64,000 bases of DNA, taken from contig CAZSFZ010000002.1 of assembly GCA_964606385.1 (NCBI GenBank), forward strand, positions 107,711 to 171,710. Reading direction: 5' to 3'. The notes below the pieces were generated by a model, which did no database searches, was not told where the DNA came from, and saw only the letters and a list, made by a program, of their open reading frames with translations. The position numbers and the translations under genes were made by a program. Source of the DNA: an uncultured bacterium. GTDB taxonomy: Bacteria > Omnitrophota > Omnitrophia > Omnitrophales > Aquincolibacteriaceae. Positions 3,548 to 35,625 of this stretch are shown one piece after another (position 1 is the stretch's first letter; every line of letters starts with the position of its first letter).

Positions 3548-4282
3548 CTACGCCTGAGGATTTTCAGCTTTCGAAGTTTCCGAGGAGGTTTCCTTCGGGG
3601 ACTCCTGCTTACTGTTTCTCACTTTCCAGGAACCTTTTTTTCCGCGCTTGAACGAGTTGCGGATGATCAAATAGCCGCCTTCCGCGCCCGGCACGCTGCC
3701 GCTAAGCGCCAAAAGGTTGTTCTCGGAATCTACTTTCATGACTTTAAGATTATGAATACAGATCTTTTCATCGCCCATATGACCGGGAAGCCCCTTACCT
3801 TTGCGGACTTTTTTACGGCAGCCCACGCCGCCCGCCATCGAGCCGATACCGCCCGGGACGCGTCCGAACATGGAACCGTGGCTCTTGCTCGCGCCGCCCT
3901 TGTAATTCAGGCGCTTCACGACCCCCTGAAAACCTTTCCCGATGGAAATGCCTTCGATGTCCACGTACTGCCCGACCTCAAAATTTTCGGCGTTAAGCTC
4001 GCTGCCAACGCTCAGGTTCTTGATGTCTTCTGTGCGGATCTCCCGGATGAATCTCACCGGGGGCACGCTCGCCTTTTTAAGCGCTCCCAACTTAGCCTTG
4101 TTTAAAGTTTTTTCCCGGGCGGCGTCAAACCCCAGCTGAACCCCCAGATACCCATTCTTCTCTTTGGTGCGAAGCGCCGTCACGTAGCACGGCCCGACTT
4201 CAAGCACCGTAACGGGAACTTGGTGCCCTTCCCCGTCGAAGATCTGGGACATTCCGATTTTTTTACCTAATAGACCGATCAT
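3548..4282 (-). CDS. rplC: 50S ribosomal protein L3 (C-terminal low-complexity extension)
   Basis: MIGLLGKKIGMSQIFDGEGHQVPVTVLEVGP... L3 signature. Confidence 0.95.
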   Translation of the reverse strand: MIGLLGKKIGMSQIFDGEGHQVPVTVLEVGPCYVTALRTKEKNGYLGVQLGFDAAREKTLNKAKLGALKKASVPPVRFIREIRTEDIKNLSVGSELNAENFEVGQYVDIEGISIGKGFQGVVKRLNYKGGASKSHGSMFGRVPGGIGSMAGGVGCRKKVRKGKGLPGHMGDEKICIHNLKVMKVDSENNLLALSGSVPGAEGGYLIIRNSFKRGKKGSWKVRNSKQESPKETSSETSKAENPQA

Positions 4283-4291
4283 GATGTTCTC

Positions 4292-4606
4292 TTAAAGTTT
4301 GATCTCCACATCCACGCCAGCCGGCAGGTCGAGCTTCATCAGCGCGTCCACGGTGCGTGAAGTGGGTTCTTCCAGTTCAATAAGACGCTTATGGGTCCGG
4401 ATCTCAAATTGATCGCGCGCCTTTTTATCGATATGCGGGCCGCGAAGTACCGTTGTCTTCCAGACATGCGTCGGAAGCGGGATCGGGCCGATCACCTTGG
4501 CGCCGGTTTTCTTGGCGGTTCCCACGATCTCCTGGACCGACTGGTCCAGCACGCGGTGGTCATACGCTTTCAATTTGATACGGATCTTTTCTTTGATTTG
4601 GGCCAT
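4292..4606 (-). CDS. rpsJ: 30S ribosomal protein S10
   Basis: 104 aa, [23 protein letters not shown]...; immediately follows fusA (3-nt gap) with no tuf in between. Confidence 0.95.
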
Positions 4607-27805: not shown

Positions 27806-28068
27806 TGGCCGCTTATTCGCTCAAGATCATCACACCTCAGGGAATCGCGTACGAGGGAAGCGTTTATCACGCGCTTGTCCCCGCGGAGAGCGGATTTGTG
27901 GGGGTCCTGGCCCATCACGCGCCCTATCTTTTATCTTCCAAAGGCGGGCGGATGGTCGTCAAAGAAAGTATCGGGCTGGAGAGGGATTTCGAGGTCGGCC
28001 CTGGATTTTTCGAGGTCCAGCACGACCAGGCTGTGTTCCTAACACAGACCTGTTCGGGCGGAAATTAA
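27805..28068 (+). CDS. atpC: F0F1 ATP synthase subunit epsilon, beta-sandwich domain only (87 aa)
   Basis: MAAYSLKIITPQGIAYEGSVYHALVPAESGFVGVLAHHAPYLL... N-terminal domain conserved; the C-terminal two-helix regulatory domain is absent; stop codon overlaps the stop of a convergent gene (TTAA). Confidence 0.85.
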
Positions 28069-28457
28069 AAAAAGAAAGCCATCACAAGAAGCGCCAAACC
28101 TACGGCGGCCGAACTCAGTACGACCGTGCGAAACGCGAGAGGCTCTGCCACAAGCGCCATCAGGAATTCCCGGGACTTCTTGTAATAGAAGACAAATGGC
28201 GCCGCTTTGGCCAGCCCGAGGCTCATGACAAGCGTCACCACAAAATTCTCCAGGCTCAAAGCCCTGAAAAATTCTCCCCAGGTCCATAAAACCAGCGCCA
28301 ACACGATCACTCCGGCCGCGAACATCCACCGGGGGCGGACCTCCGGATAAGTCCGCACGATAAAACGTTTCATGCTTTCCAAGCCCCAAACGGCCCAAAG
28401 GCCCCCCAAAACCATCCACACCCCAAGAACGATCCCGAGAATTTTAAAATAGGTCAT
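28065..28457 (-). CDS. Hypothetical 4-TM membrane protein
   Basis: 130 aa, hydrophobic segments; no recognised motif. Confidence 0.5.
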   Translation of the reverse strand: MTYFKILGIVLGVWMVLGGLWAVWGLESMKRFIVRTYPEVRPRWMFAAGVIVLALVLWTWGEFFRALSLENFVVTLVMSLGLAKAAPFVFYYKKSREFLMALVAEPLAFRTVVLSSAAVGLALLVMAFFF

Positions 28458-28804: not shown

Positions 28805-29683
28805 ATGACCGAAGTGCTGCTGGATGCCTTGAAAGATACGCTGGCCATGGCCCCATGGCTTCTGGGGATCTATATCGCCCTCGAGGTCCTTGAGAACCGT
28901 TCGGAATCCTTTATCGGGGAAAAGATCAGCCACAGAATGGGAGCGGCGCCCTTGCTCGGAGCCCTTTTGGGGTGCATGCCGCAATGTGGATTTTCGGTGA
29001 TTGCCGCAACGCTCTACGCACGTAAATGTATTTCCATCGGAACGCTCCTGGCTGTTTTTATTTCCACCTCCGATGAAGCCATCCCCGTGATCCTGGCCCA
29101 GCAAGACAAGGCCCCCCTGGTCTTCTGGCTTCTCTTTGTGAAGGTGATCCTCGCGACGATCGCTGGTTATGCGGTTGACCTCCTCTTAAAAACAAAAAAG
29201 GAGAAAGAACTTCACGCCCCGCATGGCCCCGTAATCCCCCAGGGAGGGCATCGGTCCTGCGATTGCCACGCTCACGGCAGCAATATCCCCCAATGGAAAA
29301 CTTTTTTTCTATTCCCGCTAAAACACACGCTCAAAGTGCTGTTTTTTATTTTTCTGGTCTCGCTCCTGATCGGAGCCGTGATCTCAAGGTCCGGCGAGGA
29401 AGGACTGCACCGTTTGTTCCTGTCGGGAACTCCTTTTCAGCCGCTCGTCGCCGTATTGGTCGGCATGATCCCGAATTGCGCCGCGTCCGTGGCGGTAACC
29501 GAAGTTTACCTTAAAGGCGCGATCACTTTCGGCTCGGCTATCGCGGGCCTTTCCGCGGGAGCCGGATTGGGCCTCCTGGTGTTATGGAAAGAGAACAAGA
29601 ACGGGAAAGAGAATGCCCTGGTGACAGGACTCCTCATCCTGATCAGTCTGACCGCCGGCATCCTCCTTAATCTTTTTCTTTAA
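28805..29683 (+). CDS. Predicted permease with two internal repeats each carrying a conserved Cys (DUF318/ArsP-like family)
   Basis: 292 aa polytopic; repeat motifs GCMPQCGFSVIAATLY and GMIPNCAASVAVTEVY; candidate promoter TTGATT-17-TAGCAT about 50 nt upstream. Confidence 0.6.
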   Translation: MTEVLLDALKDTLAMAPWLLGIYIALEVLENRSESFIGEKISHRMGAAPLLGALLGCMPQCGFSVIAATLYARKCISIGTLLAVFISTSDEAIPVILAQQDKAPLVFWLLFVKVILATIAGYAVDLLLKTKKEKELHAPHGPVIPQGGHRSCDCHAHGSNIPQWKTFFLFPLKHTLKVLFFIFLVSLLIGAVISRSGEEGLHRLFLSGTPFQPLVAVLVGMIPNCAASVAVTEVYLKGAITFGSAIAGLSAGAGLGLLVLWKENKNGKENALVTGLLILISLTAGILLNLFL

Positions 29684-29823: not shown

Positions 29824-30096
29824 ATGGATCTAAAGGTTTTTCTGGCAACTTTAAGCGCCATTTTTTTTGCCGAGCTCGCGGACAAAACACAGCTCGTGGG
29901 CCTCACGATGGCCTCAAAGACCGGGAAGCCCCTTTCCGTGTTCCTGGGCTCCCTCGCCGGTTACGCCCTGGTCACCCTGATCTCGGTCGTGATCGGGACC
30001 CTCTTGGCAAAATACGTGAAGCCTGATTTTATCCGTTATGGCGGCGCCACCGCGTTCGTCGTGATCGGGATCCTGATGTTCTTCAACAAGCTTTAA
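29824..30096 (+). CDS. UPF0016 (GDT1/TMEM165/MneA-like) single-repeat membrane protein, putative Mn2+/Ca2+:H+ antiporter family
   Basis: 90 aa, 3 TM, signature E-L-A-D-K-T (E-x-G-D-K/R-T/S variant) in the first helix (AELADKTQLV); strong SD GAAGGAGG. Confidence 0.7.
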   Translation: MDLKVFLATLSAIFFAELADKTQLVGLTMASKTGKPLSVFLGSLAGYALVTLISVVIGTLLAKYVKPDFIRYGGATAFVVIGILMFFNKL

Positions 30097-30118
30097 ACTT
30101 AAAAAAGGAGAGTGCCAT

Positions 30119-30202
30119 GGCCTGTAAAACCAAGAAAGCCAAGAAAACAAAGAAAAAAGCAAAAAAAGCAGCAAAGAAATCCTGTTGCTGCTGCCGTTAA
30201 CC
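30119..30202 (+). CDS. Small ORF (27 aa) MACKTKKAKKTKKKAKKAAKKSCCCCR: Lys-rich peptide ending in four consecutive Cys codons
   Basis: Excellent SD (AAGGAG, 6-nt spacer); followed 14 nt later by a 9-bp GC hairpin (30217-30238). Not in the ORF track because <60 aa. Confidence 0.45.
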
Positions 30203-30216
30203 CTTTCGCCGATCCT

Positions 30217-30238
30217 GGAGGCGGGTCTTCCCGCCTCC
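30217..30238 (+). promoter_or_regulatory. Stable stem-loop GGAGGCGGG-TCTT-CCCGCCTCC between the small ORF and rluA-like gene (no U-tract)
   Basis: Perfect 9-bp GC-rich stem read directly from sequence. Confidence 0.5.
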
Positions 30239-30267
30239 GGGATTGAAACGGGTTCTCTGCCGGCTCC

Positions 30268-31026
30268 ATGACACAGCCTTCCTTCACTTCACACCCGGTC
30301 CTCTTCGAGGATGCAGATCTGATCGTTATTGATAAGCCCGAGAGAATTCTCTCACATCCCAATCCGGGGTCTCCCAAAGCCTCCTGCGCGTTCGAGGGGA
30401 CTTACGACATGAATGAGCGGCGCTTTCAGACGCCGCAGGGGCCTTTATGGCTTATCCATCGCCTGGATCAGGACACTTCCGGCATCCTCCTGGCGGCCAA
30501 AAACAAGAAAAGCGCCGTGGCCTGCCGGGACGCCTTTGAAAAACGGTCCGTCAAAAAAAATTATCTCGCCCTCATTGCGAGGCGCCCCATGCCGCCTCAA
30601 GGCTTATGGCGTGATACCCTTATCGAAAAAAGAACGGGTGGTCATGTCCGGGCTATGATCGCGCGGTCAGGCGCTCCCAACGCTTTTTTGAATTACAAAA
30701 TGAAGGAATATTTTCCGAAATTCAATCTAGCCCTGCTTGAGATCGGTCTTTTAAGCGGAAAAACACATCAGATCCGGGCGCAAGCGGCTTTCCGGGGACA
30801 TTCGGTGGCGGGCGACCGGATCTACGGAAATTTCACGATCAATAAGGAGTTGCGTGAAGCCCTGGGGCTCCGCCGCCTGTTTCTTCACGCCTGGAGCCTC
30901 ATCCTGCCGCATCCCGCAAGCGGTAAAATGCTAGAAATCACATCTCCATTGCCTGAAGATCTTGAAGATTTTTTATTCAAGTGCAACGCGCAACGCACAA
31001 TGAAAAACGAAAAACGCGGACGTTGA
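30268..31026 (+). CDS. RluA-family pseudouridine synthase (no S4 domain)
   Basis: LIVIDKPERILSHP...LWLIHRLDQDTSGILLAAKN (catalytic HRLD), ...GKTHQIRAQ... Confidence 0.8.
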   Translation: MTQPSFTSHPVLFEDADLIVIDKPERILSHPNPGSPKASCAFEGTYDMNERRFQTPQGPLWLIHRLDQDTSGILLAAKNKKSAVACRDAFEKRSVKKNYLALIARRPMPPQGLWRDTLIEKRTGGHVRAMIARSGAPNAFLNYKMKEYFPKFNLALLEIGLLSGKTHQIRAQAAFRGHSVAGDRIYGNFTINKELREALGLRRLFLHAWSLILPHPASGKMLEITSPLPEDLEDFLFKCNAQRTMKNEKRGR

Positions 31027-31036
31027 ACTTAGAACG

Positions 31037-32698
31037 TTGCCCGTTGAGCGAGCTTTTATGAAAGTCCTGCTTTTACAGCCCCCGATCGAGGATTTCTACA
31101 ATACCGACATCCGTTTGCAGCCGATCGGCCTGGCTTACCTGAAAGCCGCCGCGGAAAAATACCTGCCCTGGGCCCGGATCACGGTCAGGGACTTTCACCA
31201 TGGCTGGAGCCGCAAAACGATCCCCCTTCCAAGAGAATTAGCTTATTTAAAAGATTATTATTCCAAGGACGACCAAAGCCCGTTCTCGACGTTCCATCAT
31301 TATTATCACTTTGGCGCGGATTTTGACCGCATCGCGAAGGAAGTCTCCCAAGAAAGGCCCGATCTGGTCGGCATCGCCTCCCTTTTCGCCCCCTATCACC
31401 GGGAAGTCCTGCGATGCGCGGAAGCGATCAAAAAACACTGCCGTGTCCCGATCCTTCTCGGGGGTTCCCAGGTTTCCGCCATGCCAGAAGCGATGCTGGC
31501 GCATCCCGCCGTGGATTTTGTGATCCAGGGGGAAGGCGAGAAACCGTTCGTGGAGCTTTTAAAGGCTCTTCAAAGAGGGAAAAGCTTCGAGAAGGCCCCC
31601 AATCTAGGCTATAAAAAAAACGGCCGTCTGATCCTGAATCCGCGGAAAGAGAATTTTCCGATCGAAGCGATCCCTTTTCCGGATCTTTCCGACCTGCCCC
31701 AACACCATTACCTTTTCGAAAAAAAGCCGCTGTGTTTTATCATTACGTCACGCGGTTGCCCCTATCGCTGCGCGTTCTGCTCCGTTCACAAGACTTTCGG
31801 GCATCAATGCCGCCGGCGCAGCGCGGCCCACATCCTTGCCGAGATCCGCGAGCGTTACGCTCAAGGTTATCGTGTCTTTGACTTTGAGGACGACAACCTT
31901 ACGTTTGACCGCCAGGAGATGACCGCGGTCTGCGAGGAATTGATCCGGGCTTTCCCTAAAAAAGATATCCAGTTGCTTGCCATGAACGGAGTTTGTTATT
32001 GGACGCTGGACCTGAAGATCCTGAAGCTGATGCGGCGGGCGGGATTCACTCATTTGAACCTTTCGCTGGTGAGCACGAATGCCGCGCTGCTCAAAAAAGT
32101 CCGAAGACCGGCTTTTCCTCAAAAATACCGTCGGGTCGTAAAACAGGCAACGGCGCTCGGATTCAAGGTAGTCGCTTATCAGATCCTGGGGCTTCCGGGC
32201 GACACGCTTCCTTCGATGGTCCAAACCCTTCTTTTCAATGCCCGGCTTCCGGTGCTTCTAGGCGCCTCCCCTTTTTATTTGATCCCTCATTCGCCGATCG
32301 CAAAACAATTTAACGCTCCTTCCGAAGCGGATGTCTTCAAAGCGAGGCTGACGGCCATGGCGGTCGAAACCCGGGATTTTCAGCGGGGAGACCTCTACAC
32401 GCTCCTGATCACGACCCGCATCCTGAATTTTTTGAAGGGGATCCCTCTCCAGACCCCCTCGACCTTCCTTTCCAGGGCGTTGGCCATCGCCTCAAAACAG
32501 GATCCTCGCTCCTCTTGGGGTGTTCGGATCCTGAAAAAGCTCCTGAAAGAAAAAAAATTGTACGCGGCAACCTCCCGGGGGCTTGAACCGCTTCCCCGCT
32601 TTAAGGCCGGGCTCTTCTTTCAATTGTGGCGAAAACTTGATAGGATTCAGACCCAGGAAGGAAAAACCATCAGAACCCGGGGAGGACGATCATGTTGA
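31037..32698 (+). CDS. B12-binding domain / radical SAM domain protein (class B radical SAM)
   Basis: N-terminal Rossmann-like cobalamin-binding region (KVLLLQPP...; likely true start at MKVLLL, 31058) and CxxxCxxC cluster TSRGCPYRCAFCSV. Confidence 0.8.
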   Translation: MPVERAFMKVLLLQPPIEDFYNTDIRLQPIGLAYLKAAAEKYLPWARITVRDFHHGWSRKTIPLPRELAYLKDYYSKDDQSPFSTFHHYYHFGADFDRIAKEVSQERPDLVGIASLFAPYHREVLRCAEAIKKHCRVPILLGGSQVSAMPEAMLAHPAVDFVIQGEGEKPFVELLKALQRGKSFEKAPNLGYKKNGRLILNPRKENFPIEAIPFPDLSDLPQHHYLFEKKPLCFIITSRGCPYRCAFCSVHKTFGHQCRRRSAAHILAEIRERYAQGYRVFDFEDDNLTFDRQEMTAVCEELIRAFPKKDIQLLAMNGVCYWTLDLKILKLMRRAGFTHLNLSLVSTNAALLKKVRRPAFPQKYRRVVKQATALGFKVVAYQILGLPGDTLPSMVQTLLFNARLPVLLGASPFYLIPHSPIAKQFNAPSEADVFKARLTAMAVETRDFQRGDLYTLLITTRILNFLKGIPLQTPSTFLSRALAIASKQDPRSSWGVRILKKLLKEKKLYAATSRGLEPLPRFKAGLFFQLWRKLDRIQTQEGKTIRTRGGRSC

Positions 32699-33159
32699 TC
32701 AAAATTCTTTTTTCTACGGCTTTATGCCTGTCCGCAGGAGCGATTGGATCTGCTTTTACGATCGCGGCGATCCCTGAGTGGTACGCGACGCTCCAGAAAC
32801 CTTCTTTCTCACCGCCCAACTGGATGTTCGGCCCGGTGTGGACGCTTCTCTATGTCCTGATGGCCGTGGCAGCAGCGATGGTGTGGCAAAAGGGGCTTCA
32901 AAATCCTCCCGTCCGGAAGGCTCTTACGGTCTTTTTGCTGCAACTGATCTTAAACACAGTCTGGTCCTACCTCTTCTTCGGGCTCCGTTCCCCGCTTTAC
33001 GGCCTCGTCGATATTTTGTTCCTTTGGGCCATGATCTTGGTTACAATAGCGCAATTTTCCAAGGTCTCGGTCCCGGCCGCCTTGCTCCTTATTCCCTATC
33101 TCTTATGGGTAACGTTCGCGACGGGCCTGAACTTGGGAATTTTGCTTTTGAACCCTTAG
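32692..33159 (+). CDS. tspO: TspO/MBR family tryptophan-rich sensory protein
   Basis: IPEWYATLQKPSFSPPNWMFGPVWTLLYVLMAVAA...WSYLFF; 7-nt overlap (ATGTTGA) with the rSAM gene indicates translational coupling. Confidence 0.85.
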   Translation: MLIKILFSTALCLSAGAIGSAFTIAAIPEWYATLQKPSFSPPNWMFGPVWTLLYVLMAVAAAMVWQKGLQNPPVRKALTVFLLQLILNTVWSYLFFGLRSPLYGLVDILFLWAMILVTIAQFSKVSVPAALLLIPYLLWVTFATGLNLGILLLNP

Positions 33160-33187: not shown

Positions 33188-33517
33188 ATGCGAGCGATAG
33201 CTTTATTGGTGGTTTCCAACGTTTTTATGACGGCCGCCTGGTACGGCCATTTGAGGTTCAAGAACGCCTCGCTCTGGCTTGTCATTCTGATCAGCTGGCT
33301 GATCGCTTTTGTGGAATATTGTTTCCAGGTCCCCGCGAACCGGATCGGCTCAAACCAGTTCTCAACGGCTCAGCTGAAAACGATCCAGGAGATCATCACG
33401 CTCGTGGTTTTCTGCGGTTTTTCTGTTATTTATCTTAAGGAAGAATTAAAATGGAATTACCTGGTCGGCTTCGGATTCATGGTCCTGGCCGCCTTTTTTA
33501 TTTTTAAAAAATGGTGA
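33188..33517 (+). CDS. DUF486-family small 4-TM DMT-like membrane protein
   Basis: MRAIALLVVSNVFMTAAWYGHLRFK... matches the conserved DUF486 N-terminus (SN.FMT.AWYGHLK). Confidence 0.6.
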   Translation: MRAIALLVVSNVFMTAAWYGHLRFKNASLWLVILISWLIAFVEYCFQVPANRIGSNQFSTAQLKTIQEIITLVVFCGFSVIYLKEELKWNYLVGFGFMVLAAFFIFKKW

Positions 33518-34330: not shown

Positions 34331-34897
34331 ATGAAAAAATCGCTCGGCACCAAAACCCTTCTTTTTCCCACTCCTGTTTTGATCGTTTGCTCCTATGATG
34401 CCCAAGGCGTTCCCAACGCGATGAACGTAGCCTGGGGCGGTATCGCCTGCTCCGAACCCCCCTGCGTGGCCGTTTCGGTGCGCGACCACCGCAAGACCTA
34501 CGAGAACATCCTGGCCAAAAAGGCTTTTACGGTGAACATTCCCTCCGAAAAATATATGAAGGAAGCGGATTATTTCGGGATCGTCTCCGGAAAAACCGAA
34601 GATAAATTCAAGGCGACGGGACTGACGCCCGTCAAAAGCGATCTTGTCGATGCCCCCTACATCAAGGAATTCCCTTTCGTATTGGAATGCGTCCTCCGGG
34701 AAACCCACAAGCTCGGCATCCACACGCAATTCATCGGGGAGATCAAGGATATCAAGGTGGAAGATGCCGCGCTCAATTCAAAAGGGTTCCCGGACCCCGA
34801 GAAAATGAAGGCCTTTATGTTCGACCCCGGCACGAGCTCTTATTACGCAACCGGGAAATTCCTCGGCCAGGCCTTTACCGTCGGCAAGAAGAAATAG
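34331..34897 (+). CDS. Flavin reductase-like FMN-binding domain protein
   Basis: LLFPTPVLIVCSYDAQGVPNAMNVAWGGIACSEPPCVAVSVR... matches the flavin-reductase fold family. Confidence 0.75.
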   Translation: MKKSLGTKTLLFPTPVLIVCSYDAQGVPNAMNVAWGGIACSEPPCVAVSVRDHRKTYENILAKKAFTVNIPSEKYMKEADYFGIVSGKTEDKFKATGLTPVKSDLVDAPYIKEFPFVLECVLRETHKLGIHTQFIGEIKDIKVEDAALNSKGFPDPEKMKAFMFDPGTSSYYATGKFLGQAFTVGKKK

Positions 34898-34899
34898 CC

Positions 34900-35274
34900 A
34901 TGACCAAGTGGCTGGGACTGGCGGCGGGCGGTCTTTTAGGGACTTTCGCGCGTTATTTCCTTGCCGGAGCCGTTCACCGATTTTGGGGGGCGACCTTTCC
35001 TTTCGGGACCCTGGTGGTCAATCTGACCGGTTGTTTCGCGATCGGCTTCCTCGCCGTGCTCGCGGAAGAAAAATTCCTCCTCGGGCCGACGGCACGCGTA
35101 TTCCTTATGATCGGTTTTTGCGGGGCCTTTACGACTTTTTCGACTTTCATCTTTGAAACCGCCAATCTCACCAAAGACGGCGAAACTCTTTCCGCGCTGA
35201 TGAATATCGTGCTCAGTGTGGTCTTGGGTTTTCTGGTCTTTCGCCTGGGTGTCATACTTGCAAGAGCGCTTTAA
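34900..35274 (+). CDS. crcB: Fluoride ion channel CrcB/FluC
   Basis: MTKWLGLAAGGLLGTFARYFL...FPFGTLVVNLTGCFAIGF...GFCGAFTTFSTF; start 2 nt after the flavin-reductase stop (the ORF track's longer 34687 start overlaps it). Confidence 0.88.
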   Translation: MTKWLGLAAGGLLGTFARYFLAGAVHRFWGATFPFGTLVVNLTGCFAIGFLAVLAEEKFLLGPTARVFLMIGFCGAFTTFSTFIFETANLTKDGETLSALMNIVLSVVLGFLVFRLGVILARAL

Positions 35275-35292: not shown

Positions 35293-35625
35293 ATGAAAAT
35301 ACCTGAAGACGGCAAGCTTTTAAGGATTTTTATCGGTGAAGCGGACAAATGGGAAGGCCGGCCGCTCTATGAAGCGATCGTGCTCCTGGCCAAAAAAGAA
35401 GGCCTGGCCGGCGCCACGGCCATGAAAGGTTTTATGGGCTTTGGTTGTAAAAGCCATCTGCACACTACCAAGATCCTTCGGCTTTCCGAAGACCTCCCGA
35501 TCGTGATCGAGATCGTAGATAGTGAGGAAAAGATCGCCAAGTTCCTCCCCCTTCTCAATCCGATGGTCAAAGAAGGGCTCATGACGCTTGAGAAGGCGAG
35601 TGTCCTTCTTTACCGCGCGGGATAA
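35293..35625 (+). CDS. DUF190 (PII-like) protein, the usual crcB partner
   Basis: 110 aa; LLRIFIGEADKWEGRPLYEAIVLLAKKEGLAGATAMKGFMGFG fits DUF190; known genomic association with crcB. Confidence 0.7.
   Translation: MKIPEDGKLLRIFIGEADKWEGRPLYEAIVLLAKKEGLAGATAMKGFMGFGCKSHLHTTKILRLSEDLPIVIEIVDSEEKIAKFLPLLNPMVKEGLMTLEKASVLLYRAG

Follow-up and report, generated by a model that had tools for sequence, protein, structure and literature searches.

Metallothioneins and the bacterial metal-binding peptides SmtA and MymT are small proteins in which 9–20 cysteines are spread in CxC/CxxC patterns, and mammalian MT-2 contains the motif KKSCCSCC. Mammalian protamines are polycations that also contain Cys pairs engaged in disulfide and Zn bridges, and AKKA repeats are found in bacterial H1-like proteins. 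In HgcB, SaoC and SaoE/SO_0444, C-terminal CC motifs and vicinal cysteines have been read as heavy-metal-handling sites (Haft & Gwadz, bioRxiv 10.1101/2022.07.06.499078). Small proteins that regulate metal exporters are established as well (PMC4361602; bioRxiv 10.1101/2023.06.02.543501), among them MntS, described as a 42-amino-acid (aa) Escherichia coli protein that modulates the Mn exporter MntP (PMC4361602). In mycobacteria, polycysteine short open reading frames (sORFs) are cysteine-responsive attenuators that regulate cysteine-metabolic operons, with stalled ribosomes blocking a duplex that sequesters the following gene's ribosome-binding site (Canestrari et al., bioRxiv 10.1101/834739). 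Here we describe an sORF whose product is a polylysine peptide with a C-terminal run of cysteines, encoded in a 64,000-nt stretch (hereafter the window) of contig CAZSFZ010000002.1 from an uncultured Omnitrophota bacterium (GCA_964606385.1). The parts of the family to which it belongs resemble several of these known things, namely Cys-tail metal motifs, polycationic binders and small transporter-associated proteins.

The micro-protein gene occupies positions 30117–30200 of the plus strand (27 codons and a TAA stop) and encodes MACKTKKAKKTKKKAKKAAKKSCCCCR. A Shine-Dalgarno (SD) sequence, AAGGAG (30105–30110), is separated from the ATG at 30117 by the 6-nt spacer AGTGCC. The product consists of a polybasic segment at residues 4–22 (KTKKAKKTKKKAKKAAKKS; 30126–30182) and a C-terminal tail of four cysteines followed by arginine (30183–30197), and the 3′ end of the gene reads TGT-TGC-TGC-TGC-CGT-TAA, with the Cys codons at 30183–30194 and the stop at 30198–30200. 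An earlier reading of this DNA from its letters alone (the sequence-only reading) had pointed out the AAGGAG with its 6-nt spacing and the 27-aa frame ending in four straight Cys codons, and the sequence agrees on both counts. It had also given lysine as 50% of the peptide; the peptide is lysine-rich, but the figure is 12/27 (44%), or 48% basic residues when arginine is included. The four-TGY-codon run is the only one on both strands of the window, where a mean of 0.02 is expected from first-order Markov simulations, and no other SD-preceded small ORF in the window contains ≥40% K/R, so that the sORF exceeds chance expectation. Neither a signal sequence nor a hydrophobic segment was found in MACKTKKAKKTKKKAKKAAKKSCCCCR, indicating that the peptide is probably cytoplasmic.

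Altogether we collected 33 distinct peptides, 31 from Omnitrophota and two look-alikes from DPANN archaea. They are 24–30 aa long, carry a net charge of +11 to +16, and are composed mainly of K (44%), A (18%), C (14%), S (6.5%) and T (5%). Asp and Glu are absent from the family variants, as are aromatics and large hydrophobics with the exception of Met, which occurs as initiator and at a single internal position in one locus (L158; locus labels are our own). Each variant has 2–5 cysteines, and in all 33 the Cys tail lies 0–1 residue from the C-terminus; loss of the Cys run from orthologous loci, which the sequence-only reading had named as a ground for refutation, is therefore not what is seen. 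Of the 31 Omnitrophota variants, 13 have a CCCC tail, eight CCC, seven CGCCC and three CC. The tail is followed by R in 14 variants and by no residue in 10, the remainder having S, K, G or Q.

The occurrence of the sORF was followed through its usual upstream neighbour, a gene for a GDT1-family cation transporter. Contigs with the same or a 90%-identical GDT1 all have the sORF at the same site, with the variants MAKKAKKAAKKKVKKVAKKSGCCCC, MAKKAKKAAKKKSKKAAKKSGCCCC and MAKKAKKAAKKKTQKAAKKSSRGCCCS. A set of 80 metagenomic loci was then sampled by GDT1 similarity alone and is unbiased as to the sORF: it is present in 17/17 loci with a GDT1 at least 78% identical and in none of the 63 loci with a GDT1 at most 71% identical, where the neighbourhoods are unrelated and where no Cys-less polylysine sORF was found after the GDT1 gene either. 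Scanning one genome per GTDB species with a degenerate DNA pattern gave at least 120 matches, most of the listed ones due to chance, among which are at least 13 further Omnitrophota loci and the two DPANN look-alikes, each with a strong SD; the resulting count of carrier species is a lower bound. As a measure of background, a loose filter for polybasic CC-tailed sORFs returned two chance matches in 885 kb of unrelated DNA. In their core arrangement, Omnitrophota orthologues stand upstream of a pair of genes for an RluA-type pseudouridine synthase and a B12-binding radical S-adenosylmethionine (rSAM) enzyme. In L138 the B12-rSAM is 59% identical to that of the window, the cluster is kept, and the sORF product is MAKKAKKAVKKKKPAKKAKKKSRRCC. 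Every orthologue is preceded by a strong SD (AAGGAG, GGAGG or GGTGA).

Comparison of eight orthologues of equal length (25 aa) gave synonymous (pS) and non-synonymous (pN) differences of 0.73 and 0.07, respectively, and a pN/pS of 0.10, whereas the other two frames of the same nucleotides gave 1.06 and 1.36. This indicates that the peptide itself is under selection, its polylysine part included. Variable sites are distributed over the three codon positions as 8/4/22; the pairs behind pN/pS are not phylogenetically independent, a circumstance that leaves the codon-position asymmetry unaffected. Within the lysine codons, AAA and AAG swap freely with Lys kept, and the purine-preserving Glu codons GAA and GAG never appear, indicating selection on positive charge in the protein and not on an A-rich RNA. 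The signal of purifying selection is among the clearest possible for a 25-codon ORF. With frame-specific purifying selection and with start, stop and SD conserved across species, the sORF is, in our judgement, very probably a real micro-protein gene selected for its peptide.

Standard gene callers drop genes of fewer than 30 codons. An exact look-up of 18 variants in a collection of ∼15 billion predicted proteins found none of them (0/18), and a query of two concatenated variants gave one match, P0155, a 56-aa call that ends in the sORF and has a spurious N-terminal extension; it is the sole trace of the family among these proteins. Scans of the peptide against Pfam, NCBIfam and PDB at E ≤ 1–10 gave no meaningful match, the only library match being CLC_0170 at E = 1 with one variant, and no homology to a known metal-binding family was found by sequence or profile in the same libraries at E ≤ 10. 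Judged by these searches, the sORF family is new and unannotated, and by the GDT1-based sample it is restricted to one Omnitrophota clade.

The stop codon of the sORF leads directly into a stem-loop (30199–30254, plus strand), in which an outer 9-bp helix (30199–30207/30245–30254) that starts inside the stop codon encloses an inner 15-bp stem (30211–30225/30230–30244) with the loop TCTT. Its folding energy is −40.2 kcal/mol, with z = −6.5 against shuffles. A 9-bp GC hairpin had been noted here by the sequence-only reading and is present (30217–30225/30230–30238), but it is the core of the 15-bp stem, to which the outer helix is added. Strong stem-loops (z ≤ −2) beginning 0–8 nt past the stop were found in 26 of 34 distinct downstream sequences. 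Hairpin sequences diverge widely from locus to locus, and the 12-bp consensus stem of 11 window-type loci has compensatory double changes at 5 pairs, indicating that the hairpin is a selected RNA element. Four loci (L101, L151, L155 and L158) have no hairpin and an intact sORF, with the next micro-gene 3–25 nt past the stop, so the hairpin is dispensable for the sORF.

The combination of codon run and hairpin resembles an attenuator, and the sequence-only reading had accordingly proposed, as one of two possibilities, a Cys-tRNA-sensing attenuator of the rluA-like gene. In such a device, ribosomes pausing on the Cys codons when Cys-tRNA is scarce would refold the hairpin and alter transcription or translation of the next gene. 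Several features agree with such a cysteine-responsive device: there are 2–5 Cys codons directly ahead of the stop, the stable and covarying hairpin follows right after it in 26/34 loci, and in loci of the L006/L029/L037/L107 type the 3′ arm of the hairpin holds the SD of the next ORF, so that some translational coupling of the sORF to that ORF may exist there. The mycobacterial polycysteine sORFs offer a precedent (bioRxiv 10.1101/834739), being likewise very short ORFs with consecutive Cys codons near the end and a stable RNA duplex behind them, which in some of our sister loci includes the SD of the next gene. However, the sORFs of mycobacteria are leaderless, form the first cistron upstream of operons for cysteine metabolism and are not selected for their peptide sequence, whereas the family described here is SD-driven and internal to a transporter operon, lying after GDT1 and not in a 5′ leader, and has a conserved polylysine body, variable downstream genes and, at some loci, no hairpin. 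Purifying selection spans the whole peptide, which a leader peptide does not need. The downstream gene changes between loci from RluA to a second micro-gene with an ArsP_1 permease, and there are no cysteine-metabolism genes nearby, including among the downstream genes. One copy, in the DPANN locus L064, faces a convergent gene, and stand-alone copies exist.

The structure of the window hairpin also argues against attenuation. It is a single stem-loop without a U-tract, mutually exclusive structures were not seen, and the sole partners with which the Cys codons pair are the GCAGCA Ala codons upstream, neither hairpin arm being among them. The start of the main stem is 11 nt past the stop, and the usual downstream reach of a ribosome is 12–15 nt; from this we infer that a ribosome paused on the Cys codons would not touch the stem and that, at termination, no more than the outer helix would be opened. 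We consider the attenuator improbable, and the proposal of Cys-tRNA sensing finds no support in the variable downstream gene, the surrounding gene content, the selection on the peptide or the dispensable, singly folded hairpin. As a conserved RNA element in its own right, the hairpin would most likely act at the transcript end or in stability and not as a sensor, and it might set expression of the GDT1–sORF segment relative to the downstream genes. A terminator scan called no intrinsic terminator at the window hairpin, which lacks a T-run; a U-run after the hairpin occurs only in a divergent stand-alone copy (L068, see below). Just 3′ of the hairpin stem stands a short motif that is conserved, TTGAAA(T/C)GG (window 30243–30252; also L084, L048, L144, L149, L154 and L013); it is seen where RluA is the next gene, and as part of the outer helix it pairs with CATT/CCTTT after the stop. 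In these window-type loci, RluA has no recognisable SD after the hairpin. An Rfam scan at gathering thresholds found no riboswitch or leader, and a relaxed scan yielded only SgrS, below threshold (20.2 bits, gathering score 37) and on the minus strand (30160–30238), which we judge to be a chance match driven by the stem-loop.

The sORF had been placed by the sequence-only reading after two putative metal/metalloid transporters and just before a radical SAM enzyme. The two transporters are indeed upstream: an exporter of the ArsP_2/'arsenic efflux protein' family (28805–29683, plus strand; 292 aa; NCBIfam NF037962 at 1.8e-72, above cutoff; Pfam PF11449) and a half-size GDT1/UPF0016 cation transporter (29824–30096, plus strand; 90 aa; Pfam PF01169 at 1.3e-20). 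The sORF starts 20 nt past the GDT1 stop, so that the two are probably co-transcribed. Source names of near-identical GDT1 proteins assign the window to Candidatus Omnitrophota. The rSAM gene lies downstream (31037–32698, plus strand) but is not immediately adjacent, since the RluA-family pseudouridine synthase (30268–31026, plus strand) intervenes. In the Omnitrophota loci the core order is ArsP_2, P-type cation ATPase, GDT1, sORF, a 49-aa micro-gene with an ArsP_1 permease, RluA, B12-rSAM and TspO, where ArsP_2, the ATPase, GDT1 and the micro-gene–permease module are each optional. GDT1 is directly upstream of the sORF, 20–110 nt away, in most loci; alternative upstream neighbours are NRAMP with an MgtE-like protein (L110) and CDF-Amt-PII (L131, L139), and the L101 locus is cut off upstream. 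The transporters around the sORF therefore comprise ArsP_2, P-type ATPase, GDT1, CDF, NRAMP, MgtE-like and ArsP_1 types, and the sORF is associated in the genome with metal/metalloid transport genes. A genuine small polycationic Cys peptide beside transporters, the alternative that the sequence-only reading had set next to attenuation, is what these data bear out as far as a conserved coding gene in a conserved transporter neighbourhood is concerned.

The window type lacks the 49-aa micro-gene and the permease between 30200 and 30268. Elsewhere this second micro-gene, which is lineage-specific, encodes 48–53 aa (typically 49) with the pattern MEKE..KKKGFFAKLFExLDKKLEDKAKK.G.CCG....DSCCG, that is, a charged helix and C-terminal Cys pairs. 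In L006 (3441–3589) its end overlaps the start of the ArsP_1 permease (3577–4536), with which it is translationally coupled, and the same module is found in L007–L010, L015/L029, L037, L107, L036 and L131/L139. The permease scores 114 bits against SaoE (cutoff 325) and 101 against the SO_0444 Cu/Zn efflux family (cutoff 300). For the 49-aa protein there are 18 homologues in 5.8 billion clusters, all unnamed; no known family was found and no function can be transferred.

On these grounds we tentatively favour, giving it somewhat less than an even chance, the reading that the sORF encodes a polycationic peptide of the cytosol, which binds soft metals or metalloids through its C-terminal thiols and serves the adjacent exporters. 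The polylysine/alanine segment of ∼20 residues, with charge all round any helix it might form, would dock on polyanions such as the inner membrane face, RNA or DNA. The 2–5 C-terminal thiols would bind Cu(I), Zn, Cd, Hg or As(III), probably in thiolate clusters formed between peptides, and the peptide would buffer thiophilic ions or pass them to the exporters encoded around it: ArsP_2 and GDT1, and in sister lineages the SaoE/SO_0444-like ArsP_1 permease with its own CC-tailed micro-protein. A thiolate buffer or chaperone is suggested by the constant position of the gene amid swapped transporters and by the Cys-tailed micro-protein coupled to an ArsP-like permease, and clustered cysteines (CC/CxC) positioned for soft metals are found in all 33 variants. 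As in HgcB, SaoC and SaoE/SO_0444, the Cys cluster lies at most one residue from the C-terminus and is encoded beside ArsP-like efflux permeases; in contrast to the HgcB and SaoC tails, which belong to full-size folded proteins, it is attached here to a 20-residue polycation only, sequence homology is lacking, and the ArsP_1 permease found locally falls well under the SaoE and SO_0444 cutoffs. Similarly, the peptide is small, Lys- and Cys-rich and has CC motifs like metallothioneins, SmtA and MymT, but it has 2–5 cysteines (about 14%) in one terminal run, and it has no match in Pfam, NCBIfam or PDB.

Several points weigh against a metal-handling role. For the predicted metal binding, the gene neighbourhood is the sole functional clue, and the permease with the second micro-protein is absent from the window itself. 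Four cysteines in a row make a poor chelate geometry for one ion. The cations handled by GDT1 and P-type IIA/B transporters are hard ones (Mn/Ca), to which thiols do not bind. The polybasic part lacks a hydrophobic face that could insert into a membrane, and it resembles a nucleic-acid binder just as much. Moreover, the DPANN look-alikes and the L068 copy are not beside transporters.

The main rival is a protamine- or histone-H1-like polycation that would coat and condense DNA or RNA (nucleoid or ribosome) in very small cells, with the Cys tail cross-linking peptides by disulfides or zinc bridges and the transporter context being incidental. AKKA-type repeats, the net charge of +11 to +16, the missing hydrophobic face and the lack of acidic residues all speak for it, and the non-transporter contexts of the two DPANN sORFs, together with the stand-alone Omnitrophota copy, fit it better. 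The peptide shares extreme basic charge and cross-linkable cysteines with protamines and H1-like AKKA polycations. It differs from protamines in being Lys-based and not Arg-based, bacterial, 25 aa long and encoded in a transporter operon. More than 30 loci keep the gene in the same transporter cluster while flanking genes swap, the family is confined to one clade and so is not a general nucleoid component, there is no linkage to ribosomal or nucleoid genes, and the homology of the DPANN sORFs is only putative. We therefore regard the protamine-like role as unlikely, if the strongest competitor to a metal-handling one.

The DPANN look-alikes are MAKKTKKKTVKKAKPKKTSGCCCCCD in L064, a Micrarchaeota metagenome-assembled genome (MAG), and MAKKEKKDKKKHGKGCCCCK in L076, an Anstonellales MAG. 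Both are on the reverse strand (positions 1735 and 4071, respectively, in reverse-complement orientation) and have strong SDs, and both show the same polylysine plus Cys-tail design in contexts without transporters; the Micrarchaeota sORF is followed by an oligo-T and then by the convergent gene. They are possibly homologous to the Omnitrophota family, or else convergent. The divergent stand-alone copy, MATKAKKTAKKAPAKKSCKTKKVRSCCCC, is found in L068, an AT-rich Omnitrophota MAG, on the reverse strand with its ATG at plus coordinate 2003, flanked by a gene resembling 2-hydroxyacid dehydrogenases and by one for an unrelated membrane protein. It has a promoter-like site, TTGACA-18-TACGAT, ∼30 nt upstream, and downstream a 16-bp hairpin followed by UUUUGUCUU, the U-run mentioned above.

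The position of the sORF 20–110 nt downstream of GDT1 in most loci would also suit a small regulatory transporter subunit which, like MntS on MntP, binds the cytoplasmic face of GDT1/ArsP-type permeases and modulates transport, the Cys tail sensing redox state or metal. Like MntS, the peptide is probably cytoplasmic, shorter than 50 aa and found in a metal-homeostasis setting, and GDT1/UPF0016 proteins are Mn/Ca transporters. However, MntS has neither polybasic character nor a Cys tail, and homology of the sORF peptide to MntS, or to any Pfam or NCBIfam family, was not seen. In L110 and L131/L139 the upstream neighbour is a gene other than GDT1, and ArsP_1 is absent from the window type; with each of them missing somewhere, there is no constant transporter partner. 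A regulatory subunit of this kind appears to us a rather slim prospect.

The B12-rSAM gene, found 1–2.5 kb downstream of the sORF in nearly all Omnitrophota loci, raises the further alternative that the peptide is the precursor of a ribosomally synthesized and post-translationally modified peptide (RiPP), or a carrier peptide, modified by this enzyme. Its weak rSAM matches in NCBIfam include RiPP methyltransferases (ApyD, rSAM_ocin_1), far below cutoffs. Against this, RluA, with or without the permease, always stands between the sORF and the rSAM and is translationally coupled to the latter, and no leader/core split, protease or RiPP recognition element was seen. Five of seven sampled B12-rSAM orthologues (57–61% identical) lie in unrelated contexts without such an sORF within 5–6 kb, so that obligate adjacency fails, and this downgrades the RiPP reading. 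There are also sORF copies with no accompanying rSAM, namely those of the 3.6-kb L068 contig and the DPANN loci. We hold a RiPP precursor or carrier to be very improbable.

Returning to the metal-handling and coat-like roles, the two may be gathered into a broader picture that we put forward as possible but doubtful: ultra-small prokaryotes, namely a clade of Omnitrophota and possibly DPANN archaea, would have a previously unrecognised class of micro-proteins of ∼25 residues, each built as a 'polylysine anchor plus polycysteine claw'. The anchor would hold the peptide on membrane or nucleic acid, and the claw would deliver thiophilic metals or metalloids to ArsP-type exporters or else cross-link a protamine-like coat switchable by redox state or zinc. 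In either role, if true, the peptide would represent a functional type new among bacterial small proteins and one that current gene callers do not see. The family has a fixed place in a metal/ion homeostasis cluster of a phylum without cultivated members. As a thiolate carrier or buffer of metal, the peptide would be the smallest device of its kind known and would add a new accessory to ArsP/GDT1-type exporters; as a cross-linkable polycation on nucleic acid, it would be the bacterial counterpart of protamines. The locus also cautions that a codon run plus hairpin can look attenuator-like and yet, as here, read otherwise.

Further features of the window concern the surroundings of the sORF. 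The GDT1 gene is a single half-size one, and no second half to pair with it lies nearby, implying that the transporter is a homodimer; half-size UPF0016 proteins of cyanobacteria are described as hemi manganese exchangers (bioRxiv 10.1101/2023.02.16.528846). Upstream of GDT1, a perfect 10-nt inverted repeat, ATACCGCATA/TATGCGGTAT (29745–29754/29771–29780), flanks the −35-like TTGAAT of a promoter-like site; the repeat is not conserved in L006, L013 or L138. An F-type ATP synthase operon lies ahead of the gene group, and a 130-aa membrane protein is encoded on the minus strand at 28065–28457. Downstream of the rSAM, on the plus strand, follow TspO (32692–33159), a DMT_6 protein (33188–33517), a probable CrcB (34687–35274; assigned by synteny with L138/L139 alone) and a probable DUF190 (35293–35625; by synteny with L139 alone). 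RluA and B12-rSAM form a conserved pair in the clade (window 30268–32698; L006 4542–6273), often with a 4-nt overlap, which suggests a joint, possibly RNA-modifying, function. The rSAM itself belongs to no curated subfamily; its best NCBIfam matches are P-methyltransferases, HpnJ and BchE, all far below cutoffs. In L136 (6001–9040), an ORF of 34 aa (MTNKLTPKVMAKEAAYWDKVKKVLKENPGKVCHK) and then a SPASM-domain radical SAM gene come after an orthologue of the B12-rSAM with 58% identity, a gene order typical of peptide-modification clusters.

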